DNA of 64,000 nt from Rhina ancylostomus (GCA_030265395.1 JARFYF010000104.1:79684013-79748012), one strand, 5' to 3'; counted from the stretch's first letter, positions 25,411 through 64,000 are shown. Notes: generated from the sequence alone by a model not told the origin. Made by a program: numbers and translations.

Positions 25411-25608
25411 CTTCTCTGTCACGACCGCACCGACGAGTCATATGACCCCGCCCCCCGCTCCCGTGAAAGGTTCTATTCAGAATGCGTTGGGAATAAACAT
25501 CCAGCAGCCGGCGGTCCCGGGTCTGGTCCCCACGTGCCGGATTATCAGAGCTGCGCATGGCCTGCTCCAGGTTCCAGCGCAGGTTCCGGGCAAGGCCCAA
25601 ACACTCAC

Positions 25609-25754
25609 CCACTCTTGCCCGTAGCTGTCCTCCAACGAGTTCAAGCTCTGATCTTCCCAATGTGACCGCAGTCCGATGCAGAGAAGCGGATACCAGCCTT
25701 CCTGTGCCATGGTGGTGAAGTAATCCGTGAATCCGGCAAAGGATTGGATAACCC
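25609..25754 (-). other. ATP4A: Isolated exon of gastric H+/K+-ATPase alpha subunit (end of TM7 plus the M7-M8 loop)
   Basis: ag|(G)[48 protein letters not shown]|gtgagt; 146 nt, phase 1 to 0. Closely matches recalled ATP4[50 protein letters not shown]. No other P-type ATPase exon was seen in the window. Confidence 0.9.
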
Positions 25755-26384
25755 CTNNNNNNNNNNNNNNNNNNNNNNNNNNNNNNNNNNNNNNNNNNNN
25801 NNNNNNNNNNNNNNNNNNNNNNNNNNNNNNNNNNNNNNNNNNNNNNNNNNNNNNNNCTCCGTAGCTCGCCCGGACGTCACGCCGTTCGGTCGTTCGCGCC
25901 GCCGATCCACGTGACGAGTGGATCGTGGTCAGTGAGCAATGCCGGTGGGAGCTTGCAGACCTGCTGTGTGATTGCAACTGCTGTGGTCAGCAATCCAACC
26001 AACAAAACATGTTTGTGCGTAAAGGGAATGTCAACGTGGGTGGATTTTATGTTATTCTTCATTATTCCCAGCAAAGCTGTATTTGCAACGTTTCCAGCGG
26101 GCCAGAGCCAGTCAGACCCCCCATGGGCTGTGGCAAAGTTGGCTTTTCCAGTTGGGTTCGGCTCTGTCTGTAATAATACCACAAGTTTATCTCTAAAACT
26201 ATCCATAGCTCAATAGAGTAACAACCAATGAGAAAGTTATTGACATGAAACGTTAGCTCAACTTTGCACTTTACAAATCCTGCCTGACATGCTGAGTATT
26301 TCCAGCGCATTTTTTAATGTGCATATACAAAGAGCTGCTGATCGCAGCTGTTGCATCCTCTATGTACATATATAAAGAACAAAT

Positions 26385-35945: not shown

Positions 35946-36004
35946 TTAATATCTCATGACTGACATGGTTTCTTTTGAGAATTTCCTCCCTTTATTTTGT
36001 TCCC
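35946..36004 (-). CDS. Unnamed gene, candidate last coding exon
   Basis: gtatgtctcag|(G)EQNKGRKFSKETMSVMRY-TAA; phase 1; minus-strand AATAAA at 35608-35613. Confidence 0.45.
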
Positions 36005-39000
36005 CTGAGACATACATCGACATGAATGACGTCAAGGTTGAAGAAAGAAAAACCTGCGCTCTGTCCGCAATGGCCATCCCAAGCTTCCAGTTGCATGCCA
36101 TTTCAACTCCCCTTCCCAATCCCACACTGACCTGACCACCCTCGGCCTTCTCCACTGCTGGAATGAGGCCCAATGCAAACCAGACGAACAACACCTTATA
36201 TTGTGCCTGGGTAGTCTACAACTCAGAGGCAAGAACATTGAATTTTCCAATCTCAGGTAACCCTCACCTCCAGTGTTTCACCCCCCACTTTCTCTCTCTT
36301 CTTCCAATCTTCCTCCACTCCCCCTAGTTTTGTCCTCTTTCTCATAACCCCCCTCCAGCTCCTTATCACCCATTTTTGTCTCCCTCTCCCTCCCGGGTCC
36401 NNNNNNNNNNNNNNNNNNNNNNNNNNNNNNNCTCTCCCCCAACTTCCCTATCTGGTTCTGGTTCTACCTGCCATCCCTCTTCCCCCGTGGTTCTCATTAT
36501 TGCCTCCCTTACTTATCAGGCTCTGGCACTGGAGCCCTTATTTCCTGCTTATCATCCTCCAGCAGCTGTCACCACCTTCACCCTCCCCTCCCCACACCTG
36601 GCTCCATTTGCCTCTTTTTTTGTTTGCCTCCGTCTATCATCCACCTGGCTCTGTCTCCAAACTTGATCCCTCTCCCACCCCTACCTGGCACAATTTGCCT
36701 GTCATCCTTCACCCCTTCTCAGTCCACCAATCACCCCTGGCCCCTGTTTCACCACTCCCCCTCTCCTCTTTACACTGGCTATCTCCCCTCTCCATTCTCA
36801 GTCCTCATGCAGGGTTTTGATCCTTTTCCCCCACAAATGCTGCTCAACCCGTTGAAGTCCTCCACCACATCATTTGTTGCTCCAGATTCCAGCATCTGCA
36901 GTCTCCTGTGTCTCCTTAAATAAAAGAAACTATCTTCACTGTGAATTCCCAATATCAACCCAGCTCAAAGCTTTTGGCCTAGTGGGCAACAGTTCTCATG
37001 TAAGCTTCTGAAGCATGAACTACCTACAGTAGGCACCTCAAAATACTGGAGAGAAACCACCATGCTCTGCGAAATCCTCTAATTTCACTGTCCGGATCAT
37101 CAGACTAATATTAACATCCTGTCACGGGTTTAAAAACCCAGAATGAAATCTTATTTGCAATCATTTCAGCTCTGATGGGCAGGACACATCATTTAATACC
37201 CCTCACTAGACTCCCAAAAGAGACATTTTATCCAAACTTTGATATGGTACAAGATTGCTCTAAGTAGTTGCAATTTGTGTTAAAATCCCATGAAGTATTC
37301 TCTAAAAGGTTGTACATGAATAATAACAGAGTTTGCACTAATGTTATTGGAATAACATTATGAAAATGTTAACTTTGATGTTCTGTTACATAAATTTAAA
37401 ATTATGAATAAAGTATATTTTGAAATTTAAGNNNNNNNNNNNNNNNNNNNNNNNNNNNNNNNNNNNNNNNNNNNNNNNNNNNNNNNNNNNNNNNNNNNNN
37501 NNNNNNNNNNNNNNNNNNNNNNNNNNNNNNNTTTAAGGGAGTTGTTGGGTGATTATTTGGGAAGCAGCAAAACAAACTAATCAGGAAAGAGTTCTCCACA
37601 GCTGCACTTATTTCTCTACTTTGTTTTTAAGGTCAAGAAGCATAGTAGTAAAATCATATACCAATAAAATAATTTTTGCACCATTAAATATAATGCTTAA
37701 TGTTCTGCATGACTTATAATTCACTTTAACAACATTAAGGCAATTTGTTGAAAATCATGGAGAGGTCAACAATTTCGGGGGCGATGGCAGACGCGGGGGT
37801 GGTGGTGACTAATGGAGAAACTATTTGTGGCATTTCATACTGTTAATGAGAATGGTGACATAACGTTATTGGTCTAGTTATCCAGAAAGGTCTAATGATC
37901 AGAAAGCATGAGTTCAAATCTTACCAAAGCAGCTTGGAGGGGAGAGAGGATTAAAATCAGTTTATTAAATAAACATGAAGTTAAAAGCTGGTTCCAGTAT
38001 TAGTGATCATGATGCTTCTGGGTTATTATAAAAACCCATCTGATCCACTAATGTCCATGAGGTAAAGAAACCCGCTGTCTTTATCCAGTCAGCCTTACGT
38101 GTGACTTCAAATCTACAGCAAAGTGATTGAACTTAAGAACATAAGAAATAGAGGCAGGAATAGGGGACTAAGCTCCATGTATCTCCTCTGCCATTCCATA
38201 AAATCTTATATCTCAGTGCCACCTTTCCATACTAACTATCATCTGAAATGGCTTAACAGGCTGCTCAGTAGTATGAAACCACTACAAACTATTTAAAGAG
38301 GCTGCTAGCTGCCAAACGTCTTCTCAGAGTAAACAGGAATGGACTGTAAATCCAGCCTTGCTAGTGAAATGAGCATCCATTAGAGAATTTTGAAAATTCA
38401 CTGTGTGACTCTTCTTTGCCATAAGCTATTGGGCTTTTTATTTGCTGATTACTGCATGGATATTTAATGCCATTATGTTCACAGCAAATTCTGGCCAATA
38501 TCTTTGTGAAATGAGCCCTACACCTTTAAACAAGTTGCTTCAATCCAGAAAAAAATGTGTGAACAAGCTGCTACTTGATGGACTGAATCTAACCTTACAT
38601 TTAGCTCTACTTCTGGCTCATACTTCACGTTAGACACAGGAAAACCATGGAGAACATACCCTCAATTCCCAACATCATATCTTACTGGGGAAAGGTCCAT
38701 GTTAGTGGTATGCATATTTCTTTTGGAATAAAGTTACAAATGAATTATGTTTCTACACTTGCAGAAAATTACTAAATACTTGTTATTTTAATTATAACTC
38801 TTCTAAATGGTTATTTGCAAATTCAGGGATAGAGAATATCATTTTACCAAATTTATTGTAAAACAAAGCTAAGAGTCTGTGGCACTTGCCTGGTTCCTTC
38901 AGTAAAAGGTTTTTACTACCATTGTAGAATTATGTTCAAACATTTGTGCAATAAAATTGCCAACCTTCATTTTCTTCCATGCTCTTTTGTAAAGCTACAT

Positions 39001-42000: not shown

Positions 42001-45000
42001 TAACTACTTCATAGTCAAGTTTGACAATCTCAGGTCATAATCTTTCTTGCGGTCTTCTCAGGGATCAGGTGCTGACAAGAGTTTTAAGACTATAAGACAT
42101 AGGAGTAGCTTTAGGCCATTCAGCCCATCGACTCTGCTCCACCGTTCGATCAGGGATCATATTTCCCTGTCAACCCCATTCTCCTGCCTTCTCCCTGGAA
42201 CCTTTGACACCCTTATTAATCAAGAACCTATCAACCTCCACTGTAAATATATCCAATGCCTTGGCCTCCACAGCTGTCTGTGGCAATGAATTCCACTGAT
42301 TCATCACCCTCTGGCTAAAGAGATTTCTCCTCATCTCTGTTCTAAAGGGACATCCTTCTATTCTGAAGCTGTGCCCTCTGATTCTAGACTCTCCCTCCAT
42401 TGCAAATATCCTCTCCACTTCTACTCTATCTAGGCCTTTCAATATTCGGTAGGTTTCAATGAGATCCCCCCTCATCCTACTAAACTCCAGCAAGTACAGG
42501 CCAAGCGCCATCAAATGCTCCTCATACGTTAACCCTTTCATCCCTGGGTTCATCCTCATAAACCTCCTCTGGACCCTCTCCAATGCTAGCACATTCTTCC
42601 TTAGATATGGGACCCAGAACTGCTCACAATATTCTAAATGTGGTCTTACCAATGCCTTATTAAGCCTCATCCTTGCTTTTATATTCTAGTCCTCTTGAAA
42701 TTATTGCATTTGCCTTTCTTACTACTGAATTAACCTGCAAGTTAACCTTTAGGGAATCCTGCACTAGGACTCCCAAGTCCTTTTGCACCTCCGATTTCTG
42801 AATCCACTCCCTGTTTAGAAAATAGTCTACGCCTTTATTCTTTCTACGAAAATGCATGACCAGTCACTTCCCTAACGTATTCCATTTGCCACTTCTTTGT
42901 CCATTCTCCCAATCTGTCCAAGTCCTTCTGCAGACTCTCTGCTTCCTCAACACTACCTGCCCCTCCACCTATCTCTGTATCATCTGCAAACTTGGCCACA
43001 AAGCCATCAATTCCATCATCCAGATCATTAACATACAATGCGGAAAGTAGCAAACCCAACACCAACCCCTGCGGAACACCACTAGTCACCAGCAGCCAAC
43101 CAGAAAAGGCCCCCTTTATTCCCACTCTTTGCCTCCTGCCTGTCAGCCAATCTTCTATCAATGCAGTCAATAAACCAAACCTCATGACACCTTATCTTGG
43201 TTAACTTGGTTTGCCTTCAGAAAGGTAATAGTATTTCACATGCTCAGGGCAGATATCTGGACAAGGTTACTAGGGAGTTTCATTATTAGACCTCAAAGTC
43301 CTGCCACCAAGTAATATGATTCATGCTCAAGGGAGTTATCTTCCAGGAAATAGGGGATAACTGTACTTTTTAAAGGGAGTTGCTGAAGCCACAAACCCAA
43401 TTTAATAACCGCAACAGACCCACATTTTGACTGAATCCATTATTTTTGGCCATTCTTCTGAGTTTGAACTTGAATTCAAACCTGAGATCTGAACATTCAT
43501 CCTTCGATCCCATTTATCACACCAAACATTAAAACAGAAAATTCACATTAAAAATAATGGTATGAAAAATAACCTCTTAACAATTGCTAGTTAACTGTTT
43601 ACCTGACATTTCGCTGAGCAACACCATTTCTTTTAAATTCCATTTCCAGAAGTTTTGGTGTGCTGAAGAGTATTGTTCTGCACAATGTTTCAGACTCTGG
43701 GTTATCAATCTGCATTTTCCATAAGCCCTTAATATAGTTCTCAACAGACCCTGGGTTTTTGTTGTAGTGTGGAGTAAGGTCTTGTAATTTTTCATAGTAG
43801 CTCCTAGTAAGACTTACTATTTGCTAGAAATAAAACATACATAATTATTAGAATGTGTGCTACAACATGATGTTAGAGAAATATGGTTTGTATCTACTAT
43901 AATACAAAGAAAATGACTTATTTTGTTGGATATGGAAATTACTGAATTGTGGAGTCAGTCAAAAGCTGGAATTGTGATGACTGAGTCCTCAATTGATTGA
44001 ATTCGTTTTCTCCATTTTGTCCATTAATTTGGCAAATTCCAAGACAAAACTATTTCATAGTTTCAAAGCCAAACTTAACTGAAAGTAAAATAATAAACAC
44101 GTATGTCAAAGTGTTTAGGTACTGCAGCCGTCATGGTTGAATATCTGGAGCAACACACATAGAGCTGGAGGAACTCAGCAAGTCAGGCAGCATCTATGGA
44201 GGGAAATGGACAGTTGGCGTTTAAGGTCAAGACCCTTCATCTGGACTGAAAGGTTAAGGGGAGGTAGCCGGTATAAAAAGGTGGAGGGAAGGGGTGGAGC
44301 AAGAGCGGGCAGGTGATAGGTGGAAGTGACAAATGGCTGAAGCTGATGGAATCTGATAGGAGCGGAAGGTGGAGTATGGAAAAAGGGGGAAGGAGGTGGA
44401 GAGGGGGACCAGTGGGATGTCATTGAAAATTTTTATGAGCTAATGCCCTTGCACTTGAATAATAACAATATCAGACAAAGGCATTAATTCACAACAATTT
44501 TCGATGACTGAATTATAATTTCAATGATATTTCACCCACTCTTTTGAAGTTCATCTGTAATGAGTGTTGCTCTATTTTTCATCTGCTAAGTGCCTAAACC
44601 TTCAGATTAGCCATTAGGAAGCATACATTCATTAAAGGTTGAAACTGTGCCACTTGTCATATTGGTACCAGCAAAGGCACATAGAAGCCAAAGCTTAAGT
44701 AGGGTTGAGGATCTCTGGGTGGTCTCTATGCTGTTTGGTCTCATAAACAAAAACGATTGTCCTGAAAATAGTCAGTGTTGGGCCAGAAGAGTTCTCTGCA
44801 AGCTGTCGTGAAAATATAGGGAAGGGAAGGAATTCACCTCCCGGCTCCACATTAAAACCAAGGTCGGCTCATCTTCACTTTTCATCAACACCTCACTCTC
44901 TGACCCTTGTCCCAACTGCTGCCTTGCACCCTGTCCTATTTGTCAGCTGAATGACTGGAAATANNNNNNNNNNNNNNNNNNNNNNNNNNNNNNNNNNNNN

Positions 45001-48000
45001 NNNNNNNNNNNNNNNNNNNNNNNNNNNNNNNNNNNNNNNNNNNNNNNNNNNNNNNNNNNNNNNCTGGAAATATGCTTCTTTGTCAATAAATCTGTTTATA
45101 TATTAATGTTTAAATAATAAATGTTCTTTCATTTTTCCCAGCTGGCATTAGTTGATTACACTTCAGGGAATTGAACATATACTCTGACACTTTAGCGCAG
45201 TGTTGAGGGAGAGCCATATCTCTGAAGAGAAATCTTTGTGGAGAAATTCATCCCCAAACAGAAGTACAAAGTATGCTGTATTGGCTTCAATGGAATTGAA
45301 TTTCAGAGGCAGAGTAAAACATGTGACTATATAGTGATTTTCATACCATTGACTGGGATATAACTTTCTCATCACTTCTTTCATACATGGATATAAAAAA
45401 TACTATGGCACTATTGAAGGAGGAGCAGGTCAGTTTTCTCAATATCCCAGCAAATGTTTATCATCTAAATCAGTTGAATGGGTTATTTATTTCAGTGCTA
45501 TTTGGGTGATCTTTGTTTCCACAAAATGGCTGCATGTTTCCCTCTCTTAAGTGTGTAAAACAATTTGGAACTTCCAGAAGTCACTGAAAATGCTGTACAA
45601 ATGGAGTTTTTTTCTTATACAACTGTTTATAAATACAATTAAACTGTGCATGGTTTTTAAGATAGAAATGTGTACCGGCATTGAGGAACTGATGTCTGAT
45701 GATGCGACCATTTGTTTAGAAGCTTTGAAGGAAGGTGCAGGTATTTGATGCAGTGGGTCCGTTTTTATTGGCATTCTCTGGTGAACACTTACTTTAGCCT
45801 TATTTTTCTTGGAAGCAGGCCTAAAAGCAGGGTAGTAAAATTATATTTTTAAATTTGTAATTCTAGTGTAGAATATATGATTCCTCAACAAGAACAAAAA
45901 TTATATTCTTACATTTAATTCTTCATTTATCAAAATAAATAAAATTTACACTGAACCACATAAAGTGACATGCAGACAGATGGCTGAAACCTTGGAAGGA
46001 AGGAGAATGAGGCAGAGAGTTTCAGAGAGGTTGAGGATGGGAATTTCAGACCTCCTAAAAGCACAGAAGCCGGTGTTGAAGCAATTAAATTTCAGCATGT
46101 CTGAGAGTTCTGAATTGGAGCAGGAAGATATCTCAGAGGCTGATAAAGATAGAAGAGATTGATGTCTTATGCAGGGTTAAAGATATACAGGAATTTGAGA
46201 ACAAGGTTAAATTTAAATTCAAGGCATTGCTTAACCAGGATCCAATTTCATAAACCAATCATTCAATAGTCTTGGGACTACTAATGGGTGTTTGAAAGTA
46301 AAAGTATGTCAGCCAGGCCTAGAATTGATGGAGGAAGAGTGAGTGAGATCCAGTATTCATAGGCTGTGTTGGGCCAGATGTTGGTAAATGCTAGAAAGGT
46401 GGGGAGGGTGGGTGTTGTCTATGTGGTGGTGTTTGGTGATTAGAATTGTGGCCTGTTGGTATTGAGAATGGTGTGCTAGCAATCAATGATCAGGTAAGTG
46501 GCCAGAAAAGAGGCTCTTAGAGATTGGTGCCTGCACCAACAGTCCTAGGNNNNNNNNNNNNNNNNNNNNNNNNNNNNNNNNNNNNNNNNNNNNNNNNNNN
46601 NNNNNNNNNNNNNNNNNNNNNNNNNNNNNNNNNNNNNNNNNNNNNNNNNAGGTTGATTGATGGGTTAGGAAAATGAAAGTTTGGTGAGAGATGGAGGGTA
46701 GGGATTGTGGCCTGGGCTGGTGGGTGAACAGATTGAATGTTGGGGAGATTGGGGCCTGGGTTTAATGGAAAGACTGGAGTTGGTGACTGAGCAGATTGGA
46801 GGGGATCACCACTGGATTGAGAGAGGGTTGGAACTGAAATCATGGCTGTGCCAGTAGTTGTCCATGACGGTTGCTCCCTGGATAATATAGTCTAATTTCT
46901 AAAGTGGGAGTTGCACAGGGAATGACACAAAATGATTGTTATTACACTTCACTCTGTGGTAAATAAGTTTTCAATCTCACAGTACTGAAAGAAACATGAC
47001 ATGATCTAATTTCTAGGCCAAGTTCGATCACTGCTCCATCCTGTGATATCTGATCACAGCTACAAAAGCTCTTGACAACTGTGGATAAAGAAGCAAAATA
47101 TTCACCAGATTCAATTATTTTGGATCAGTCTCTGCCTGAAACTGTCCAGGTGTGGAAGTTGGCAAAGACTTTGATATTAACTCCCTGTTCTCATACATGA
47201 CAAATGACCATTTGGATGAGATACTGGAAATTTGCCACCATCCATAGAATCGGAATCGAGCATGAGTCAACTGCATTCAGGAAGGAAGGCATCAAAAAGG
47301 GAGAGAAGTAAGATTAATTGAAAAAACGTACATTGGGCCAATGTAAAGAAGAGGGTAGTTATATTATGTTTATGGAATCTGGATAAAGCAGTTGGAGAAA
47401 ATTTAGTTTGGAATATATTGAGATTGATGGCGTCAACATTTGACAGTGTTCAGGGCATGAGCATGATGTGGGAGCAAAATGGGGACATGGATCTTCCTCC
47501 ACTAATAATCATCTAAAAGGTATTTAAAACTTTCAGTTTTGGATTCATGGACAAACGTTTGCCCTGTAACATTAAAGACACATGCCAGCACATGTGCTTC
47601 TGTGTAAAGAAGCTACCTTTTGAATGTTATAGAGTTGGACATGTACCTTGATCTGTTACATTATGATTACCAGTGGTGCTGAGGGTTCAGATTTTATAGC
47701 TGCTTTGGACTAGAACTAGAACAAAGAAAAGGCAGGATGCAGATGATACAGGGAAATCAATGCATCTGATCAATGTTGCCTCAGCAGACAAAAAGCATTG
47801 GCCCAAGAATAGTTCAATGTATAAAATGTGCACTGAATCAGCAATGAGTGGAAAACCTGCAATAGTTTTGTGTAAAGCCACAGGGAAGTGATGTTCTAAT
47901 AACATGACACCCAATGTGTTGTGTGTGTTAGAATCATGGATCCCATGTCTTTGCCATATAATTATGCCTAAAACGTGCCTCACAGCAGAGATGCACAAGA

Positions 48001-51000
48001 AATGGTAATTCTACTGCTGAATCTCCAGCTCTGGTGGGAACTCTCAAGGCAGGAGTTCCCATTCTTGAACCAGTGGAACCATATTAAGGCAGATTGACCA
48101 ATGTAGCAGAAGAGCAATAGGTTTGAGACAAGCTGTTTCCAATGGCTGAAATGTCATCATGATATTGGAGGAGGATATGTGGAACAGAGATCATGGTTAC
48201 CAGAGGAGAAGAGATTCACCAGGATGTTGCTTGAATTGGAGGGCTTTAGTTATGTGGGGAAATTGGATGGGCTGGGCTTGTTTTCCCTGGACTGAAGGAG
48301 ACTGAGGGGTGACCTAACAGAGGTATATAAAAATATGAGGTATGGATAGGGTAGATTGTCAATTTTTATTGCATAGTAGAGATATCAAAAATAAGAGGGC
48401 ATACGTTTAAGGTGAGAGGAAGGAGGTTTAAAGGGGATTTGAGGGAAAAGTTTTTTTAAACACAGAGTGACTGATGTCTGGAACTTACTGCCAGAAAAGG
48501 TGGTAGAATCAAATACAACATTATGATTAAGAGACATTTAGACAGGCACTTGAATAGGCAAGGCATAGAAGAACACAGTCTTAGTGTTGGCAAATGGGAT
48601 TAACATAGATGGGCAAAAAGGTTGGCATGGATGTGGTGGACCGAAGGGCCGATCTCTTTGCTGTACACCTTTATAACTCTCAAAATGCTGGAGGAACTCA
48701 GCAAGTCAGGCAGCATCTATGGAGGGAAATGATCAAAGTCCTTCATGCATATGAGGTATTTGCACACGAATGCTGCTGGGTGCACAGCAGGGATTTTGAG
48801 TGGTTGGTCCAGATATCCAGCATCTGCAGAATCTCCTGTGACTATGATTCTATGACTAGGTACCCCTAGTAATATAGAGGAATTACTTTTCAGAACCATC
48901 TTGCAACTATCCCAGATAAATCAATTTACAACCTTTCTGCTGGAATTAGGTGGAGACAAAACCTTTAATCATTGTAGGAACTTGCTTTCATCCTTCGGCT
49001 AAGGCCAGCTCCAATGTTCAAGGTCTGTGCTGCTTACAAATTGTATATTCAAATGACAGTGTTGCAACAGTGCCATTGATTGTATGTTGCCTACCACTCA
49101 AAATCTCTGCTGTGCACCCAGTAGCATCTGTGTGCAAATACATCATATGCATTAAGGACTTTGATCTATTTCTCAAAAGTATGGTATGCACACACAAGTA
49201 ACATTAGCAATTAATTTTAAAGTAACATTCTATCATGTAGTACACAATAGAATTTTTGGCTCATAAAATCCATAGTACACAAGGCAACAAGGTAGAGTTT
49301 ATGGATTAGATTTTTAGTTGATTCCTCCAAAATTGTCACTGGATACCAGAGACCATATTGAAATAACTCCTTGGAAAGCAAATGTGAATTGATCTACAAT
49401 TACTTAACTGGATTGCTGAAGAAGGTCACATGTTGACACACCCTCTTAGACAAGCAGATGCTTTGCTATGAACAATATATTTCATACCATTGTTTGAAAG
49501 CAAAATTTTCAACAGAGACTATTTTACCTTCCTTTCCATGACTGTGTTGGCTTTATTAAGAGCAAACCAGATTCTTCCTCAATATTTTCTAAGGTATTCG
49601 TCAAAGTATTGGCAAGAGTTTTCCTTTGCTCTGTAAATTTCAAGGCTTCCTCATTCCATCCCTTTTTTTTCTTAAAATATTTTAAACAGAAATGTATAGA
49701 AACATNNNNNNNNNNAAAAATGAATGAACATTGCATGTAAACTAATGGGAGACCATGACATCTTCAGTTATTAACACTGAAATTCAAACACATGTCAACC
49801 ATAATTTATTAAGCAAAATGTGTATTTTCACCCAAATCTGGGGACTATTGCACATAAGTCCACTTTCTCTAGGCTTCTTGCTGATCGTAATCCTTCCCGA
49901 GATTTTCTGTGGAATTGGCAGTGCCCAGTGAATACATTCATCCAAATATAGGTCAAGAATATGAAAATTATGTTGTAATGATGGAGTCATCATTGATGCT
50001 GCATTTTCCATGGCTACTCGCAAAGTAACAACCGGCAATAAGTTTCATTGTCAACATTCATAGATTCCGTCAACACATACATTCATAAGTCAACATTGCT
50101 GTGGTATCGATAGGTCTTTCCAAATAATTTGTCCTTACTTTCCTACTACTTTTTATCTTTGTATAATTTTTTTTTCTCTCTCATTTTGGGTTCTGATGGG
50201 GAAGGCAGCATTACTAATGCAGGCAAACTGGTCTTCAGTTAGAAAGGATATGAAAAAGGGAGAAAGAAAATCACCTGGATAGTGGGGAAATTACTAGCTA
50301 CAACACTTCAGAAGTCATCAGCACACAACTACATATTGCGGTATGGGAAACATGTATGTAACAAACCAGTCAGGAGTGCCTTGCCATGAAGGAAATTAAT
50401 GAACTGTTTTAGGTTTATGAACAACATTTCAGTATAAACTTTAGGTGATTTATTGAATTTAATGTGACACCTTGCCTTCATGGGAATAAATAGGGGTTGC
50501 TGGTCTGGTCTCATGATCTCCAATGGACTAAACTTGTGCAGCATTTTAAACATGCTGTGTCTCATGAGAGCTGGAGGGATTTAGTACATTGGTTGAGCAA
50601 GGCTGCAAATGAGAGTCGGCTAGTCCAGGCAGAAAGGACAGGGAAAGGGGAAAACAGTTATGCAGAGTATCTGGGTGGATGCAACTGGAGGGAGAGGGAG
50701 AAGGTGAGGGAGAGGAAGGAAATACACTTAGAATAGAAATGGCAGAAGGAATGAGAGGGAAAGAGTGAGGGGTAGATTTATTACCATCAGTTTTCTACCT
50801 GACAGGATTGAGGGAATTCTGTCAGCAGATGAACTACAGTGGTTTAAGGAGCCAGCATATCAACACTTTTTGCAAAGGCATTTAGGATGGGGCAATAATG
50901 ATCCTATTAAAACCCATATCATGTAAACCAATAAACATCATTTGAAAAGAATTGTACAGATTGATAAATGAAGAGGAAGGGTGGGAGACAACATAAAGGG

Positions 51001-54000
51001 AATTACAGACCCATTAGTCTGTCATCAGTGGTAGGGAAGATATTAGAATCGATTCTCAAAGATGAGGTTACTGAATATCTAGAGGTGAATGGCAAGATAG
51101 GNNNNNNNNNNNNNNNNNNNNNNNNNNNNNNNNNNNNNNNNNNNNNNNNNNNNNNNNNNNNNNNNNNNNNNNNNNNNNNNNNNNNNNNNNNNNNNNNNNN
51201 NTTTCCATTTCCATGGAGCAGGCTCGATGGGCCGAATGGCCTTCTTCTGCTCCCTTATCTTGTGATCTTGTGAAATGAATGACATAATGAGCAGTCTAAG
51301 GTTGTTGAAGGCTGCATAAATTAAAGCTTTTCCCAATATGGGCAAGCCCTTATAGTTCCTGGACTGTAATTCAAAGCCTGTTCTACAGGGAGTACACTTC
51401 CTTGAAGTGCTCTACCATGAACATGAAGAAACTCATGTTTAAATTTCAAATACTGGAGATTTGAGGATTCAACCTCCAAACTCCCAAAGAGGTCTTCAAT
51501 CAAAACCAGCAAAGAAAGCTTTTTTTAAAATATAACCTGCATTAAGCAAGAAGAGAATGGACAGTTTACATTGGAAATTGCCATTAGAATTGTTTAAGTA
51601 CACAGTTTCTATTATATTTATCTTACTCAAAATTGAAATGAAATGAATTAAAGCTTATGTGCAGAATGCACATATCATGTGCAAAACTTCCACAACATAG
51701 ATTGTAACAGGTGTGAGCAATTAATGTTAAATTGGTTATGATAAATTACCTTTATGTACAGTTCATTCATTTTTTTGAAAACTTCTGAGATAGGCTTTGT
51801 TGTAACAACTTGATCATTGATACATTTTTCTGCCTCTTTTAATGTGACATGCTGAGAGTATTGCTTTACCAACTGGGAGAATCTCACCTTTTGTAAGTCA
51901 ATATATTGTTCCATAGTTCGAACTGCATTCTGCAACACAAGCAAGAACACAATAGACTAATCAACTGAAATCACCTCCAGTTAAAAATAGCCTGAATTTT
52001 AGTGATTTATCTCTTGAAAACTATCATTGTGCCAAAAAAATTGAAGTACTGCAAGACTAAAAGTATTTAATTTAGACTGAGAGTACCATGCATAAATGAC
52101 AAACATCAAATGGGTCACAAAGGGTTACATTTCTCTGGGGAAGCATTTTTGCAGGGAGGATGGAGCCTCCCAAGGGACTAAAATGACAGAAAGGAAACAC
52201 ATTCACAATTCAAACTGTATGTGTGCTGCCTGCCACATTAGGCATGGACAAAAGAGAAAGACTTGCAGATGTCCCAGCTGCAATACTGGCCGGGGTAAGC
52301 CAATGTTAAACAATGCAGAGAATTGGTGCTGCTCTCAGTCTGATGATCTTTAAACTTTTCAGGCAGTAACTCACACTCCACTGTCCCACTCCACCCCTGA
52401 AATACCAATATCTGCTTTGCCGCATCCCCCACTGTCTGTTTCCTAACTCTACAATGTCTGACCTTTTCCCATGTGACGTCAAGCTCCTTTTTCACACAAC
52501 AACTACCTCTCAAACTCCCCAGTGTTTACTTTCTCATTTTTCAACATTTATTTTCTGAAATCTCCGTGTCTCCTTCTGAGCACTAGATTTCTTTTTCTCA
52601 ATACCCCAACTTCTGCCTCCTTGATACCTTGATTTCTGCCTTCTCAACACCCCTGTTTCTGCATCTTCAACCCCTCCCCCCATTTCATACCACCTTATTC
52701 TGTTTTCTGCCCCAACCCCTGATGTCAACCTCCTCAGTCTCCTCAATTTCCACTTTCTTCAGCCCCAGGATCTGCCTTCTTCAAAACTTCCCAGATTTCC
52801 ACTTTCCTACCCTCAAGGATCAGTCCAAACTCCCCAATTTTATCCTCTTTGAGGTCTCAGTGATTGCTTCCCTCTTGTCCAATGTTTGCCATCCCCGATG
52901 TCTTCTTCCCAAAGTACCCAATTACTTTGATTCTCTGATCCTATGAGAGCAATCTTGTCACTTACGTGTATATTGCTCTGCCTATATGTAGCACTGATGA
53001 TCAGCATTTATTGGTCTGTGCCCCTACTGGAACATCATCATGATTATAATAACATCAGAGATCCAATATCTGGGACTCCTGGGACCTCCCCATATGTTTT
53101 CCAGATAATGGGTAGTTTTGAATATTCCCCCCAGTTTAATTATTGTCCAATTAGGTACATGGAACTAACATCCATCAATAGCAGTTAAAGTTGTGTTATT
53201 TATTCGGAGATTGCACTTGAAGGTTATATGAACAGTTTTTTTTACACTTTTTTGCACTGAATGAGCCAAGAAATTGTCATGCCATAAAAAGTGAATGGTC
53301 ATGCATGAATGACTGAATATTTTACAGTTTGCTTAATTACTTCTGCAAAGAGGAAATACTTTGCTTGATGGATCTTCTCAAAATCTATGCTTTCTTAAAG
53401 TCTTGAAATCAAAACATAATGTTTTATCTAATAAGCTGACATAATTATAAAAGTCCACCTCAGCATAACACATGTAGCATGTTAATAATTGCAGGTATCA
53501 ATCATGTGTATGTGATTAATGAACCATAAGCAATGATTTGCCACTGAACCCATCATACAAGAAACAATCTGTAATAATCAAAACGTCATTATGTGATTTA
53601 AGGTCCAGTGCGGTTGGCTTTTCAGTCCAGCAGTAGGTAGTAAAATGAAGCAGAGGATATATTTATCAAGGGTGTATTTAGGTAAAAAAAATGTAACTCA
53701 TAACCATTCCAAATACAACAAATTTAAAATTTATTTATTCCTTCTAAATGCTGCCTTCTTCATTAAACTACACTGCCAACCTGCAGCCACAATCAATGCA
53801 TTTCAGAAGTGAGATTTTCATATCAAAATTTTTGAGGAACTAAGTTATGTTTTAATTTGTGCCTATTCAAGTGACTTAATACACCTCATTTCCCTCAAAG
53901 CGCTCTCAGTAGTCATCCTCAACCTTTTGCACTCTCCCCTTCACAGAAAATGCCTCTTCTCAAANNNNNNNNNNNNNNNNNNNNNNNNNNNNNNNNNNNN

Positions 54001-57000: not shown

Positions 57001-60000
57001 GAAAATAATACCTAATGTAGCATCTATGCTCTGCTGTGGCAGGTCTCCCTTATATTCTGGCAAATCCCACCAAATTTATTGCTGGATTTATGAATCTGCT
57101 AATTGTACACATTTTGCAGGTGTGCTTAAAATACACTATGGGTGCAGTTTTCCACTCATTCNNNNNNNNNNAAAACCAAACAAGCTGTTTTAAAAAGCAA
57201 TGGTAAAACAGTGTTTCTGTGTTTTGATCACTCAAATTGGTCTAGGATTGTACTTTGTATCTCCTACCTTGTAGTTTTCTTTCAAAATTATGTTATTGTT
57301 GACACCTTTTGTTAAAACTCTGGTATTATGATTCACATCTGCTCTTGTGAAAAGGAGAATGGCATCAGGATCCCGGGCTTTAACAAACTTCATATCTCTT
57401 CTTGTGCATTGTGATACATTTGCATGATGGATTGCGTCCAGCTCCTTTGCATTAAGTGTACAAAATAGTGACAAAATTGAGATCAAATGAAGAACATATC
57501 CTATGTTTCTGAGGCTTTCTTGGTGTGTAAATTTGAATTTACCATGTATGAGAAATTCACCTGAATTAAACTTGTTCTAAAATACTGACTAATTTCTGCC
57601 TAAATTAGTTGCTGGTAGAACCTGTATCCTTCACAAAGCAGTAAACATGTGAAAATCATTGGATAATGAGAGCAGAAACTATGTTCCAGGGAATTCAACA
57701 GATGCACCCAATCTGATCATGTAAATAAAGGAGTAAGTGGTCTTCATTGAATCGGTAAATTTCCTGGGATTTCAGCAACACTTTCTGTTCCTCCCCCAGG
57801 CCAACAAATACAATCAGGAACAAGGGGAAGAAATTACAATGCTCCCAATTTCCTTCAGACCAATTCCCTCAATGTATTGTCAGATAGGAACCCATTTGTA
57901 ATGAGTGATGAGCACCAAAAAAAGTCTAATACAGTGACAATGCTTTGCTGTTGCATGCCTCCCTTATATTTTGGGAAGTTCCATCAAATTTAATCCAATG
58001 CTGTCATCAGGCACCAGAGGCTCACTCTATCTGTAACCTTCTCAAGTCTTACAATCACCTCAACATTCATACGCTTCCATTTCTGGTCATATTCTCTTCC
58101 TATTTTAGTTCCTCAACCACTGGTAGTTGTATTTCAGCTACTGGGGTTTTAAACTGTGGAGACAACTCTTAAAACCAATCTCCTTTATTCCTTCCATAAT
58201 CTCATGAGGCTCACTGTCACATTATGTGTGATAACAGTACAGTGAAAAGCCTTGGGGTGCTTAACCATATTGAAAGCTTAATATATATGCAGGATTTTAT
58301 TGGTATTGAAAAATCATAACTCACTGTTTAAAGATAAAAAAAAACAAGGAAAACCAGTAAGATGGTTGAATATAAATTCCTTGATTTATCACACTTACTC
58401 TTTGTAAACAGGAGATATGAATTTTCCTCTTGTCAATTTGTTGTTTGTTTTGGTGTTGCCCTTTGTCATTGCATTGGATCACATCATCACATTGCTGTTG
58501 CCTGTATAACTCAGAATAAATGGAATGTATTTTGGAAACTAAGGATCATTCTTAATTAGAAACATTGTTCCATTAAATGTCATTAACCAAGCACATTGCT
58601 TCAGCAAGCTGATACAGAAATAAATTGTTTGATGCAGACTATTCTCCATAACAGATTGGATTACATGTTGTAAATACTAATTTTTTCATTGAGGAACAGG
58701 GATAATGGGAGCACTGAACACTAAGAAAAACACACTCAGTATAGGTCAACTTGCCAAATCAAATTCAATAGTGGCATTGTCACAGTTGTCTAGGTCATGA
58801 GGAATAAGTGGAGAAGTGAGGTTTTGAAGAAAATAACATACAATAAGCAGGGGAAAATGGCAAGATGCGCTGCCTCAACCTCAGGGAAGAGAAGATAAGT
58901 TTTAACTGCTTAATTTAGAACAGTGATTATATGAAGTGCATTGGCATTGGCAATGGCAATGGTAAGGTGGGGGTAGCAGCTCGTAATACAGGAACAACAG
59001 AGAAATAGCTTGAAATTAGGTAGATAAGGAGAAGGGACAAAAGACTGGATTACAGGAGGGAAAAATAGGACATTATAAAAAATAAATATGATTTTTTTAA
59101 AATCCCTATCTGAAGAAATGATATTGTAATAAATTAACAATCAGCCATGAACAAATACTATGTCATTACTTCCTTAACAGCTTTAACATCCCATGGCAGG
59201 TTTAATGCCCTATTAATGTGTGAATGCAGTAAATTCATGAAACTCATGATGCTGCCTCCTCAATGCCAAAACCAGAGAGGATTATCGTCCTGTAATTTAT
59301 GGTGATTTGCAATTTACAAGTGATTTCTGAAGAGAAGGCTGGGATTTTTATATTAATCCAGCAGAGCCTGGACCCAGACTGTTGAAGATATGGGCTTCAA
59401 ATATAGAAACAAGGGAGCAGGGATGCACAAGCTGTCAGAGTTAGAGCAATGCAGAGCTCTGGGGGAAAAAGGGCTTGTAGAGCTGGAAGAGGTGATAGAT
59501 ATAGGGATATTCTACCATTCTTTCTAATTTTAATGAAACAAGCCATCAATGCACAAAAAAACCTGCAATACGAATCATGTAAAAACGTATATTTTCTGAT
59601 TCATTTAATATCAAACTGGATGAACGACAGTAGCCTGTAATAAAAGTGCTACCAAACAGGATGTACAAATGGTATTAGGCAGAAAACCTGATATTTCTGA
59701 AACTGAGTAAGACTGCCCAATTAGAATGCTGTGGAAAAGATGAATGAATAAGCTTTTGTGTCTGATAGCTGAATGAATCCTGTGTCAGTAGCAGTTATTT
59801 GAATGTAAAGTCTGCCCTCAGATCTAGGAGTTTCAGAAAACACTTACAGCAGCTGAAACTTATTCCAAAATTCAGTCTGTGATGGACCTTTCGCACGATC
59901 CACCAAGATGGTGGAATTTGCATCTTTTCCAAAGTCTTGAAGGAATTTCAAGCTGGCCTTATCACGCACGTCTTCAATGTTGATGGTTGCTTTCTCATGG

Positions 60001-63000
60001 GATAACCAACCAAAGGAAGATTCAGGATATTTCATCCCATCACTACTTAACAAGGCACTGATGACTTTGGGTCAAGAACAAGAATCAAAATAAACACACA
60101 ATCACAAGACACTTTGTCAATCATTCTGGCTATAATTAACTTTAAGCATTTCCACATAACCTAAAAATAAATGTGGGATGCCCTGAAGATCCATATTACT
60201 GTAATACTGGCAATTATACTGGGAAAGCGCACATTGAAAAACCTCTGCTGAAGGCTTTGAGGGGTCATGGTGATGATCCCCTGTATGCATGGAACTGATA
60301 GGCTACTGGAGTCACCACTAGGGTGGCATCAGGACTCTTTCCCTTTGTTGAAAACTCCTGCGCCCCCACCCTTGTATGAAAATTGGCAGGAGTCCTGCTC
60401 TTAGTAATGGCAAACATCTTGTCCATTAGAGGTTCAAACAGCCAGAATAACACCCACGTGCTCTAGATGGGTGTATTGCCGACTCTGGTCAAAGTGGTGA
60501 ACTGTTGGCAGATGAAACAGGAACATAGGGAGTCTTCAGGCCTGGATGCATTTTGCCACAGGCCTTGTTGGAGAAGGCCAATCAATAATTCACCACAAAT
60601 TCCAGCCCTACCAGAGGTCCAACAGGGTGATATCTGAAAGGCCACAGCAAAAAGATACAATATTTATTTCCTAAAGAAAACCTAATGTGAAATAGCTAGG
60701 ATATTGTCCTGTGCTTAGCTTCCTTATTCTCTTAAACTGTAAACTAAAAATAATAATGATTTGGTCCAAGTTGGTATTAAATCATGGACCCATTGTGGCA
60801 AACCCAAATCAATAGATGGCTCCTTGCAGGAAGCAACCATGTCCTAGAAAATCTGATGCCTAACCTCTTATAAGTAATTCACAGGCTGGCCAATTTTCTA
60901 TGAACAATTCAGATGCTGGTACTGAGTCCATCTAACTGCAAATGTGCAAATCATTTTAATGTTTAAATACAAGTATAAATTATCCACTATGAATTATATG
61001 TTCTCAAAGAGGGTCCATACACTGTGAGGTTTCAAAGATAAATATTATCTGTAGAAGAGCTGGGGATCTGCAAAATTAAACAGTCTTCCTAAAGTTGTTT
61101 TTTTATTATGCACTTTATTGGAACTAGATAATGATTCTCTTTCTTTGCTGCAAGTTGCTTGGTTGTTTGATTTTGCTCAGTGGGCTATAGTTTTTGTATT
61201 CCTTTACCAACATTTTTCTTCATCTTCTCTCACAAAGGGAGGATGATGAGTATTCCATCATTCTTGCATAAGGACAAGGAATTTGTGTTTGTGCATGTTG
61301 AGGGTAGCAGTGGAATGAGCATTTAGACATTTGAGGAGCTATGACTACAATCATCACATGTAGAACTTGTGCTTAGAGATCCCTCCACACATGACATATC
61401 GGAAGAAACCTGTCATTGTGGTCTCCATTTCAAAACACTTGCTACTGCATTTGAAGGTGAAAACATCTACAGCATGAAAATCTCTTCATTCCAAACCATC
61501 CTGGGAAATAACTAACATATCAAGTCATCTTCAGTTCTCACATGCATGAATCAACACAATGGAATGAGTTTCCAGCTGTCCAGAACACCCAATTTTCAGG
61601 GCTTCCTAAGTGCAAAGTTACATATTGTAAATGTGCTGCATCAAGACTGTTCGTGTCAACCCAATTATTATCCTGGATATAAAGGTTTACATGCAGTTAT
61701 TTTTCAGGTGATACCTGACCATTGAAACATCATCATGATTCCTTGACACAACTAAGAAATACTTTGGCTTAGACATTTCAGTATCTATTTCTAATATTGT
61801 GTCACCTTCATCATTTTGCCTGGTGGTCTAAAAAATGAATTGCTTCAAACTGTAATCCCAGAAAGATCTGTTCATTTTTCAAAACTTCATTTGTATATCA
61901 AAAACCTTGAATTTACCACAGTGACTGAACATCCCAATTTTAAATTTAAATTTTATTTACAGCGTGGTAACAGGCCCTTCTGGTCCAACGAGTCCACGCC
62001 ACCCATTTTAAACTCATGTGAACCTACCCGTACGTCTTTGGAATGTGGGAGGAAACCGGAGCACCCAGAGGAAACCCATGCAGACACAGGGAGAATGTAC
62101 AAACTCCTTATAGACAGTGGCCAGATTTGAACCCGGGTCACTGGCGCTCTAAAGCGTTAGTGTAGTGGATAGCCTATCTCTACCTCCACCCTCCCCTCAC
62201 TTCATCTGCCTGCATTTTTACTCTTTCCTTAAAATGTCTCTATCACCCACCAGCCACTATCTCCAAACTCCATCCCTCCCCCTTGCTGGCTCCATCTGCC
62301 CATCATCTCCCTCCACTCTGGTTCCACCTATCGCCTGCCAGCCCCTGCCCCCCTTTTACATTGCCTATTTCCTCTCTGCACTCTCAGTCCTCATGCAGGG
62401 TCTTGACCCAAAACATTGACTCTCCCTTTGCCTCCACAGATGCTGCTTGGCCTGCTGAGTTCCTCCAGCAGTTTGTTTTTTACTTGATTCCAGCATCTGC
62501 AATCTTTGAGAGTCCAAGGGCCTTCATCTGGTCTTTAAATGCCTGGTGTCAAGTGTTCAGAAACATATTCTGCAAATGCCTCCAGGTTAGATCAATTTTA
62601 AAAAAAACACAAGGGCTCAGACTGGATTTGCATTGGCTGTGATTGGATCAGATTTGAAATTCATCCAGAGCAGACCTCTAATCCAAGGCAACAGTGTGGA
62701 AGATACACTGATGCAACAAAGAAACTGGGAGAATGGAATGGATTTCATATAAAACAGAATGCAAGGATAGTTAAGTTAGCTGCAGGAGTCAGTGGACCTA
62801 CTAGAGTTTAGAACAACACAGCACAATACAGGCCCTTCAGCCCACCACATTGTGCCGCCAAAGTTTGGTCAGCTTATCGTCAGAAGTGGAAGGAGGTACA
62901 GTTGAGAGGACATTTACCCAAGTAATTAACCCCCACTTCACCCATCATTTGTTGATTGTGAACACTTTCTGTGCACAGATCGGCTGCCACATCACAGTAT

Positions 63001-64000
63001 CAGGCGCAATTTTCAGGAAGTATTCACTGGGGATTTCATAAGGCCACGACAGGACCTTTGAGAACGTTCTCAGACACAGGTAAACACTGCACACGTGGAG
63101 AGAACAGACAACCTCGGGACCCAGTCCGCCCACAGGAACAACCAGGGTCAAACTGCTGACTCTGGATGANNNNNNNNNNNNNNNNNNNNNNNNNNNNNNN
63201 NNNNNNNNNNNNNNNNNNNNNNNNNNNNNNNNNNNNNNNNNNNNNNNNNNNNNNNNNNNNNNNNNNNNNCGTATGTCTTTAGATTGTGGGAGGAAACCGG
63301 AGCACCCGGAGGAAACCCACGCAGACACGGGGAAAACATATAAACTCCTTACAGGAATTGAACTCTGATCGCTGGCACTGTAATAGTGTTGCGCTAACCG
63401 CTACGCTACCTTGCCACCCAACTAAAAGCAATTACCTTCAATGAATAGATATATTGTAGTTTTAGAAATGAATTTAAGATCTTTATTAGTCACATGTACA
63501 TCGAAACACACAGTGAAATGTATCTTTTGCGTAGAGTGTTCTGGAAGCAGTCCACAAGTGTCGCCATGCTTCCAGTGGCAACATAGCATGCCCACAACTT
63601 CCTAACCTATATGTCTTTGGAATGTGGGAGGAAACCGGAGCACCCAGAGGAAACCCACACAAACATGGGCAGAACATACAAACTCCTTACAGACAGTGGC
63701 TGGAATTGAAACCAGGTCGCTGGCGCTGTAATAGTGTCACGCTAACCGCTACACCACCATGCCCGCCCGAGCTTTTTGATCTATTGGAATGTAATGACAC
63801 AGATATAACAAATTGCAAAGCCAAAGCCTTGAGTTTGTATCCGAGTAGCTTTCATTAACAATAAATGATGTGTGATTACAGTAAGCAGCCCTGAGGGAGG
63901 CATCCTTGGCAGATTCTTCCTCTAGGCACTGCTCCTATGGCTTTGTGCCACACTGTACTCCTACCTGTCAAGACTTCACTTAGGATACACTGGCTGCTAC
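35946..64000 (-). CDS. Uncharacterised multi-exon gene with a putative FAM186A/B C-terminal-like domain; 5' end beyond the window
   Basis: Exons 63965-64000, 59848-60064, 58399-58501, 57268-57444, 51750-51929, 49528-49670, 45676(or 45793)-45820, 43603-43823 and 38965-39101, probably with 35946-36004, join through GT-AG introns with matching phases into one stop-free frame of about 470 aa. Confidence 0.8.
36051..36914 (+). mobile_element. Penelope-like element 3' part (GIY-YIG endonuclease C-terminus plus pLTR-like tail)
   Basis: 36051-36260 translates NLRSVRNGHPKLPVACHFNSPSQSHTDLTTLGLLHCWNEAQCKPDEQHLILCLGSLQLRGKNIEFSNLR*, followed by a pyrimidine-rich tract and the ...tccagattccagcatctgcagtc terminus. 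Confidence 0.8.
37855..38380 (+). repeat. Older tRNA-derived chondrichthyan SINE; related copies at about 5830-6200 (-) and 39390-39600 (+)
   Basis: gagttcaaatc B-box-like; aaaacccatctgatccactaatgtcc...ccttacgtgtgact...ctgaaatggc. Confidence 0.55.
38965..39101 (-). CDS. Unnamed gene exon
   Basis: cattctag|(S)CRLPHLALRDDGRKDLACNKLQSHFTEKNSSSLHVALQKSMEENE|gttggc; 137 nt, phase 2 to 1; a second in-frame AG lies 6 nt downstream. Confidence 0.7.
39953..40265. mobile_element. Penelope-derived inverted-repeat (MITE-like) element
   Basis: Arms 39953-40020 and 40163-40230 are near-perfect reverse complements. Confidence 0.75.
40790..41387 (-). mobile_element. CR1 LINE 3' fragment running into a gap
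   Basis: ORF MRGIDRVDSWYLFPRVQMSNSRGHSLKVRG; upstream LVRPHLEY-like motif (tactccaaatgcggcctgactag). Confidence 0.85.
42085..43170 (-). mobile_element. CR1 LINE, RT domain to 3' end, frameshifted
   Basis: WLTGRRQRVGI..VTSGVPQGLVLG..FADDTEIGG..LQKDLDRLGEW; LVRPHLEYCEQFWVPYLRK..LERVQRRF. Confidence 0.92.
43603..43823 (-). CDS. Unnamed gene exon
   Basis: ttttatttctag|QIVSLTRSYYEKLQDLTPHYNKNPGSVENYIKGLWKMQIDNPESETLCRTILFSTPKLLEMEFKRNGVAQRNV|gtaaac; 221 nt, phase 0 to 2. This is a different frame from the ORF track entry. Confidence 0.8.
44150..44420 (-). mobile_element. Penelope-derived 3' fragment
   Basis: gctggaggaactcagcaagtcaggcagcatctatggaggga...gacccttcatctggactga followed by a purine-rich tract. 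Confidence 0.75.
45400..45615 (+). repeat. Ancient DeuSINE-like fragment; related pieces at about 35730-35900 (-) and 62950-63080 (+)
   Basis: atggcactattgaaggaggagcagg...cacaaaatggctgc..gtttcc...tgtaaaacaatttgg resembles the recalled Deu domain. Confidence 0.5.
45676..45820 (-). CDS. Unnamed gene exon with two in-frame donors
   Basis: ctgcttttag|PASKKNKAK[|gtaagt, exon end 45793]VSVHQRMPIKTDPLHQIPAPSFKASKQMVASSDISSSMP|gtacac; phase 2 to 0 with either donor. Confidence 0.7.
48190..48680 (+). mobile_element. CR1 LINE 3' fragment
   Basis: gaagagattcaccaggatgttgc...ctgaggggtgacctaacagaggtatataaaa...gtttaaggtgagagg. Confidence 0.8.
48731..49166. repeat. 74-bp inverted repeat (48731-48804 / 49093-49166)
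   Basis: Manual alignment gives 6 mismatches in 74 nt with a 288-nt spacer. Confidence 0.9.
49528..49670 (-). CDS. Unnamed gene exon
   Basis: attttaag|KKKGWNEEALKFTEQRKTLANTLTNTLENIEEESGLLLIKPTQSWKG(R)|gtaaaa; 143 nt, phase 0 to 2. Confidence 0.85.
50968..51272 (+). mobile_element. CR1 LINE ends flanking a gap
   Basis: KRKGGRQHKGNYRPISLSSVVGKILESILKD before the gap; CR1 3' tail (gatgggccgaatggccttcttctgctcc) after it. Confidence 0.8.
51750..51929 (-). CDS. Unnamed gene exon
   Basis: gtgttgcag|NAVRTMEQYIDLQKVRFSQLVKQYSQHVTLKEAEKCINDQVVTTKPISEVFKKMNELYIK|gtaatt; 180 nt, phase 0 to 0. Confidence 0.85.
55030..55212. mobile_element. Short Penelope-derived inverted-repeat element
   Basis: aaagtgcaggaaatactcagg...ggca ... 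tgctgcctgatctgccaagcatttccagtactttctgtttttatttt. Confidence 0.6.
55955..56280 (-). mobile_element. V-SINE/HE1-like SINE, degenerate
   Basis: aacaggcccttcagccca...ttacagtggccagttaacctacc...tgggaggaaa...aggattgaacct. Confidence 0.7.
57268..57444 (-). CDS. Unnamed gene exon
   Basis: gcaaag|ELDAIHHANVSQCTRRDMKFVKARDPDAILLFTRADVNHNTRVLTKGVNNNIILKENYK|gtagga; 177 nt, phase 0 to 0. Confidence 0.8.
58399..58501 (-). CDS. Unnamed gene exon
   Basis: ttatacag|QQQCDDVIQCNDKGQHQNKQQIDKRKIHISCLQR|gtaagt; 103 nt, phase 2 to 0. Confidence 0.75.
59848..60064 (-). CDS. Unnamed gene exon
   Basis: ttcttgacccaaag|(V)ISALLSSDGMKYPESSFGWLSHEKATINIEDVRDKASLKFLQDFGKDANSTILVDRAKGPSQTEFWNKFQL(L)|gtaagt; 217 nt, phase 1 to 2. 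Confidence 0.75.
61947..62160 (-). mobile_element. V-SINE/HE1-like SINE
   Basis: V-domain core tgtgggaggaaaccggagcacccagaggaaaccca; B-box-like ttgaacccggg. Confidence 0.85.
62165..62510 (+). mobile_element. Penelope-derived 3' fragment
   Basis: cagtcctcatgcagggtcttgacccaaaacattgac...agatgctgcttggcctgctgagttcctccagca. Confidence 0.75.
63270..63420 (-). mobile_element. V-SINE/HE1-like SINE
   Basis: tgtgggaggaaaccggagcacccggaggaaacccacgcagacacggg...gctaaccgctacgctacc. Confidence 0.85.
63474..63770 (-). mobile_element. V-SINE/HE1-like SINE with a LINE-derived tail
   Basis: ctttattagtcacatgtacatcgaaacacacagtgaaatg, then the V-domain core and tRNA-like head. Confidence 0.85.
63965..64000 (-). 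CDS. Unnamed gene, partial exon at the window edge
   Basis: SSQCILSEVLT-G|gtagga; phase 1 matches the next exon. Confidence 0.55.

Follow-up and report, generated by a model that had tools for sequence, protein, structure and literature searches.

An 18-exon gene between SNCAIP and SNX2

We analysed a stretch of 64,000 nucleotides from Rhina ancylostomus (GCA_030265395.1 JARFYF010000104.1:79684013-79748012), henceforth the window, and count positions from its first letter unless a contig is named. It contains SNX2 and most exons of a second gene, which sits between SNCAIP and SNX2 (all three genes lie on one strand) and has SNX2 as its downstream neighbour, as a first-pass annotation of the same DNA had placed it. 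The features are as follows.

63965..64000, minus strand: coding exon, 3' part (the exon starts 93 bases past the window end); conserved middle helical block, 33/43 identical to chimaera
59848..60064, minus strand: coding exon, weakly conserved linker, 28/72 identical to chimaera
58399..58501, minus strand: coding exon, predicted long helix ahead of the core
57268..57444, minus strand: coding exon, start of the FAM186_C-like core, FTR.D...N motif and predicted short helix
51750..51929, minus strand: coding exon, predicted first long helix of the hairpin, 33/60 identical to chimaera
49528..49670, minus strand: coding exon, predicted second long helix and E.SG.(F/L)LIKP motif; the core's most conserved exon, 35/47 to chimaera
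45676..45820, minus strand: coding exon, predicted disordered; homologues use this long form
43603..43823, minus strand: coding exon, W and TP(R/K)(I/L)LE(L/M) tail motif, predicted short helix
38965..39101, minus strand: coding exon, disordered tail, with a homologue match
35287..35390, minus strand: last coding exon, LP.I-like motif and stop, 13-14/27 identical to two sharks
36050..36290, plus strand: high-copy repeat in the last intron, outside the gene, no Pfam match
25001..26000, minus strand: CpG island, likely the SNX2 start
1-26000, minus strand: SNX2, with PX and Vps5 domains in its exons

The ten minus-strand exon pieces in the window, whose boundaries were guided by homologues, run from 64000 to 35287 in a single open frame of ~487 codons including the stop, with every intron GT-AG and all phases in agreement. 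This agrees well with the first-pass annotation, which had proposed nine or ten exons splicing in phase into ~470 aa; all seven of its quoted peptides that we searched for were found on the minus strand (at 57357, 51929, 51869, 51779, 49670, 49571 and 43661). Its range of 35946..64000 proved too short for the gene, which extends beyond the window and whose stop at 35287 lies outside that range. Specifically, 14 exons (674 codons) could be joined using RefSeq guides and GT-AG sites, and 17 consecutive exons are open over 788 codons with GT-AG sites throughout. Together with an ATG exon, joined by phase match only and sharing 81% identity with the beginning of the Hypanus model, the full gene has 18 exons, ~804 aa and a length of ~80 kb, with eight more exons upstream of the window pieces and the ATG ~51 kb past the window end. 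The joint probability that eight random AG..GT intervals of the same lengths would all be open was ~1e-10; this control is post hoc because the exons had been selected, and the stronger evidence is the cross-species match, in which RefSeq proteins align exon by exon in the same order. The exon at 51750..51929 has a single match in the genome, and the last exon matches the Heptranchias tail weakly (E=0.044). On these comparisons the gene at the SNX2 locus is almost certainly real.

Two candidate exons were rejected. An open frame at 39738, considered as the last exon, had no homologue match and was replaced by the exons beginning at 39101 and 35390; a minus frame at 36215-35949, at the lower bound of the first-pass range, is antisense to the high-copy repeat and also had no homologue match. 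The repeat itself, which we take to be Penelope-like, had 39 other copies at 80-86% identity among the 40 scored of 4580 candidates. The intron after exon 43603 contains open minus frames (42173-43191), presumably LINE reverse-transcriptase remnants. Two donors are in frame for the exon at 45676..45820: the site at 45792 is a consensus GTAAGT, and that at 45675 is weaker and is the homologues' choice; use of donor 45792 gives a 28-nt exon and an open short form, meaning that alternative splicing of 39 aa is possible.

Orthologues and an unnamed, animal-wide family

Using a single exon as query, we retrieved RefSeq proteins labelled 'uncharacterized' from sawfish, skate and stingray, and the sawfish protein added two sharks. 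Orthologues carry this label in sawfish, skate, stingrays, sharks and chimaera (e.g., LOC127572922 in Pristis, LOC132394024 in Hypanus, LOC129695805 in Leucoraja and LOC103182381 in Callorhinchus), unnamed and with no function assigned; the earlier description of the gene as 'hidden' is not borne out, because RefSeq already annotates these orthologues. Identity to five ray and shark proteins was 91% for Pristis (over 290 aa), 75% for two stingrays and 63% for two sharks, with the core exons better conserved than the linkers, and the sawfish and stingray orthologues (75-91% identical) match the ray gene exon by exon. In a tree without Pristis and Leucoraja the orthologues formed one clade (support 99/99). 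Their models vary in extent from 209 to 1240 aa, and only an older chimaera model has the whole N-terminal domain. In the sawfish RefSeq model two exons are skipped, half the core with them, and the skate model begins inside the core; these defects stem either from faulty annotation or from erosion of the gene in certain rays.

A family profile built from five shark and ray proteins matched 170 proteins at E<=1e-3, of which 74 reached 1e-10 and 26 reached 1e-30; 150 of the 170 were itemised (four being the profile's own inputs) and 20 were given names. A second family search returned 112 rows from 7999 scored candidates, most of them named. Named members include early branches and protostomes (the coral Acropora, an acoel, the flatworm Macrostomum, molluscs, a brachiopod, an annelid and nemerteans) as well as deuterostomes (echinoderms, a hemichordate, amphioxus, lampreys, chimaera, sturgeons, bowfin, a caecilian, a newt, a frog and a turtle). 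A link to uncharacterised marine-invertebrate proteins, suggested in the first-pass annotation, is supported by relatives in corals, molluscs and echinoderms. We saw no mammal, bird, teleost, arthropod or nematode among the named members, which suggests loss in these groups, and no more than suggests it because most matches of the first search lack names. Full-length members share an architecture of N-terminal helical domain, long coiled coils, middle block, core and tail. A deep clade of P0059, P0115 and ~20 related unnamed proteins, many of 1000-1270 aa, forms a branch separate from the animal members with names. Neither a description of the family nor a mention of six of its locus ids was found in the literature searched (which held few subscription papers). 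The family is unnamed and animal-wide, its RefSeq orthologue entries being known already as uncharacterized.

A second copy and the age of the duplication

The ray genome carries a second member of the family, paralogue B (copy B; the window gene is copy A).

C66:5798655-5833036, plus strand: paralogue B; the donor after the third core exon is GC, not GT

Paralogue B has the same core, the same predicted fold and the same three core intron positions and phases as the window gene. It differs in its weak or absent middle block, in its location on another scaffold near CSNK1G and PCLAF, and in its retention by tetrapods, where it usually still has the N-terminal domain; members include Heptranchias XP_067829323, Chrysemys LOC101936663, Rhinatrema LOC115075358 and Lissotriton LOC144826256. 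In sturgeon, a paralogue B model (P0039) is joined to a PCLAF domain, probably because neighbouring genes were merged during annotation.

In a tree of 35 rows built from concatenated domains, clade A (support 99/99) and clade B (91/91) each held sharks and sturgeon, with tetrapods found only in clade B, and grouping the cartilaginous-fish copies together was rejected (p-AU 0.004; 21 of the 35 rows). This places the duplication before the split between sharks and bony fishes. A CSNK1G gene is 0.6 Mb away from copy A; the one near copy B is ~0.1 Mb away, and PCLAF lies 0.95 Mb from that copy. A cyclophilin exon was found between SNX2 and CSNK1G, there was no cyclophilin match on C66, and an exon of a close SNX2 paralogue (87% identical, likely SNX1) lies on unplaced contig C5904. 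We take the two neighbourhoods to match the paralogous regions of human 5q23 and 15q22; FAM186A/B are located at human 12q13. The copies likely derive from an early vertebrate genome duplication, with SNX1 and PPIB not placed beside copy B.

Remote homology to FAM186A/B

We examined the relationship to FAM186A/B using the Pfam profiles PF20865 (FAM186A-B_C; cut-off 37 bits) and PF20870 (FAM186A-B_N; cut-off 27 bits). PF20865 matched 23/44, 4/57 and 11/20 relatives (at thresholds of E 0.01, 0.003 and 0.003, respectively), and was the sole Pfam family recurring over the core across relatives. The matches started at profile position 6-18, nearly always ~12, with E down to 3e-8. The cut-off was reached by none of the 121 scanned relatives (best 34.1 bits), shark and ray proteins scored just 9.6-11.3 bits, eight window exon stretches had no Pfam match and PF20870 at E<=0.5 matched 0/17 relatives. 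The profile comparison proposed in the first-pass annotation therefore held in part: relatives match in the same register, and the cut-off was never reached. Precomputed Pfam tags put PF20865 on some invertebrate members, and the FAM186 domain link was therefore partly on record.

The ray also has a bona fide FAM186 gene elsewhere in its genome.

C81:2367068-2382500, minus strand: FAM186 gene; five exons match PF20870/PF20865 in order

Two of these exons exceed the FAM186A-B_N cut-off (41.4 and 33.7 bits). Using profiles built only from the unnamed family, we found that the N profile ranked the second N exon (N2) of this gene first of 2588 ORFs (E=0.009), and that exons N1, N2, core and tail scored above 491, 500, 494 and 500 of 500 composition-preserving shuffles, respectively. 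Four of the five FAM186 exons were recognised by the matching profile, N3 being the exception; as a cross pair, the family N profile scored the C exon above 488/500 shuffles. With the first tail profile, the FAM186 tail exon did not stand out among the 2588 ORFs (E=4.3); the 500/500 result was obtained with a wider profile. The C81 core exon, which aligns weakly, seems to span an intron position kept in both paralogues. No FAM186 sequence was retrieved from the PDB sequence set, candidate loci L008 and L010 contained nothing FAM186-like, and L017, considered as a retrocopy, was a chance match with neither DNA nor profile support.

Tested as a remote FAM186 superfamily, the N region, core and tail were homologous in collinear order. 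Two proposals of the first-pass annotation gain from this: the homology between the core and the C-terminal domain of FAM186 (fixed PF20865 register, E to 3e-8, shuffle-tested core profile), and the W...TPKLLE block, which is a conserved motif with a counterpart in the C81 gene. Membership of FAM186A/B proper, which it had also considered, does not hold, given the missed cut-offs and the separate gene on C81. That the gene is related to FAM186 we regard as very probable; it is not an orthologue of FAM186A/B, and that it is an ohnologue, paired with copy B, we regard as probable. Judged by its sequences, the unnamed family is a sister family of FAM186A/B with its own vertebrate paralogue pair, and not an orthologue, because the N, core and tail exons of the separate FAM186 gene were picked out in order.

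Predicted structure and tail motifs

AlphaFold2 was run on the Heterodontus orthologue with an 89-sequence alignment. The predicted core (Heterodontus residues 60-184) consists of a 16-aa helix followed by helices of 45 and 49 aa, which form a hairpin; two short strands, located at the conserved motifs FTR and LIKP, clasp it shut. Core pLDDT was mostly >90 in both paralogues, the newt paralogue being predicted with the same core; the tail was predicted to be disordered save for a helix at the TPRLLE motif. Foldseek searches with the Heterodontus and newt models gave no match at E<=0.001, a VIA wide search returned generic hairpins only (best Z 9.4, among unrelated coils) and an Atlas search yielded no usable link (leads 0.80 or lower). 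The core is predicted with confidence and has no specific fold match in these searches. The core profile had 0 matches in the PDB sequence set, axoneme structures included, and the full-length profile had 67 weak, generic coiled-coil matches.

Most of the nearly invariant positions have a hydrophobic or structural character, and the protein appears to carry no enzyme signature. In a set of 160 tails, which includes isoforms and whose sequences are not independent, LP[PAS][IL] occurred in 141 (12 in shuffles) and TP(R/K)(I/L)LE(L/M)(D/E) in 109 (0 in shuffles); the ray tail has LPHI, and its second motif ends in F. No mention of an LPPI-type motif together with cilia was found in the literature searched, where LPPI-type terms gave unrelated papers.

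Proposed function and alternative explanations

We propose that the locus holds a member of the unnamed family that is sister to FAM186A/B, that this gene is probably half of a duplication pair, and that it likely encodes a non-enzymatic coiled-coil scaffold of sperm-forming or ciliated cells, an explanation that as a whole we would back about half the time. Structural invariant residues, the apparent lack of an enzyme signature and the tail motifs together suggest a scaffold. The protein would begin with long helices, which may span or polymerise, followed by a ~130-aa core (a short helix and two antiparallel helices) and a disordered tail, with the hairpin and tail motifs docking partners. 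Rays would have dropped the helical domain that ancestrally formed the N-terminus and taken a new first exon into use. A role in sperm or cilia, to which we give even weight for and against, is suggested by analogy with distant human and elephant paralogues. Human FAM186B was down 8.5 log2 in testes lacking germ cells and among the 30 most reduced genes (PMC9133692), and FAM186A appears in an elephant seminal plasma list (PMC10548676); a FAM186B-CCDC65 link given in a third paper (PMC7515907) is a computational prediction and was given no weight.

The same gene and ancestry could instead underlie a general cytoplasmic scaffold or tether (at the centrosome, Golgi or cytoskeleton) with no link to sperm or cilia, which we consider unlikely yet the strongest competitor. 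Long coiled coils with linkers would suit such a protein, invertebrate members are automatically named myosin-like, golgin-like or CENP-E-like, and no axonemal structure contains a relative. However, these names track coiled-coil composition (the PDB matches, too, are weak generic coils), and the superfamily's only expression hints come from the male germ line.

A further question is whether the ray copy is decaying, with broken 5' exons and the remaining frame under relaxed selection. At 72-81 kb upstream of the ray ATG are exons that match the N-terminal domain of chimaera, one with E=7e-11 and the others weakly; the open frame of the ray gene is without this domain.

C104 ~79.87-79.88 Mb: relic N-terminal-domain exons (L056-L057), directly downstream of SNCAIP

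One relic exon carries an in-frame TAA, which is also present in the X1 contig (0 differences; the run is possibly from the source sample), and the same exon has a 2-nt insertion in organism B; another candidate relic exon stops after 15 codons. Speaking against full decay, the best-matching relic exon, of 114 nt, is oddly conserved, being free of the 14 listed differences (of 15) in organism B's contig, and the interval in which exons for chimaera residues ~206-400 were not found contains a 5.4-kb gap that could hide exons. The two exons skipped in the sawfish model (one in the core) and the skate start inside the core would also fit decay. Against it stand the run of 17 open exons with GT-AG sites, the greater conservation of core exons over linkers and two stingray models that are open for 732-779 aa with a downstream start region in common (the downstream ATG exon is also where the Hypanus model begins). 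We therefore consider decay of the whole copy improbable; the ray copy likely dropped the N-terminal domain and uses a new first exon.

It is more doubtful still that the likeness to FAM186 is convergent helical composition between unrelated families: every score is under its cut-off, and the fold is a generic hairpin with no usable Atlas link, but E values reach 3e-8 at a fixed register, and three regions match collinearly against composition-preserving shuffles, a non-helical tail motif included. Finally, that the gene is the ray orthologue of FAM186A or FAM186B, as the recurrence of FAM186A-B_C over the core might suggest, is hardly credible beside the C81 gene, with its five exons in FAM186-model order and two over cut-off, and a shark profile that retrieved no protein above the PF20865 cut-off.

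Implications and comparison with known systems

Returning to the sister-family scaffold, a broader and more tentative extension, which we hold with somewhat less than even confidence, is that the family represents a slowly evolving, animal-wide ancestral form of FAM186. Jawed vertebrates would have had at least three copies (SNX2-linked, CSNK1G/PCLAF-linked and FAM186 proper), of which mammals kept only FAM186A/B, a fast-evolving branch of a germ-line or ciliary scaffold. Rays would have caught the SNX2-linked copy mid-remodelling, already using a new start exon with the N-terminal exons still in place and in decay, and the tail motifs would be undescribed docking motifs.

FAM186A/B are poorly understood human genes, mentioned in the literature searched mostly in variant and expression tables; we found no mention of FAM186 in the evolution literature examined, and no match in supplementary files of two ohnologue papers. 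The family is animal-wide and therefore open to study in invertebrates and amphibians, with flatworms, echinoderms, molluscs and amphibians as tractable models, and for mutagenesis it offers a confidently placed domain boundary, invariant residues and the two tail motifs. The analysis also corrects the misleading 'myosin-like' and 'golgin-like' names that numerous invertebrate proteins carry. It further adds a likely ohnologue pair, which catalogues centred on human genes would miss if neither copy is present in mammals. The finding itself reveals no new mechanism, and RefSeq already lists the gene as uncharacterized.

Among known systems, SNX-BAR, PI3K iSH2 and the LSD1 tower have two long antiparallel helices as in the predicted core (Z 8-9), with 5-16% identity to it, which suggests a common arrangement and not kinship; the BAR comparison (Z 9.3) was tied with unrelated coils, and there was no BAR Pfam match. 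The closest named relatives are FAM186A/B (PF20865, PF20870), to which the family is remotely homologous in three regions that follow one another in the same order: N-terminal helical region, core and tail motif. By contrast with FAM186A/B, the family falls under both Pfam cut-offs and is a separate gene in the ray genome, and the ray protein is without the N-terminal domain.
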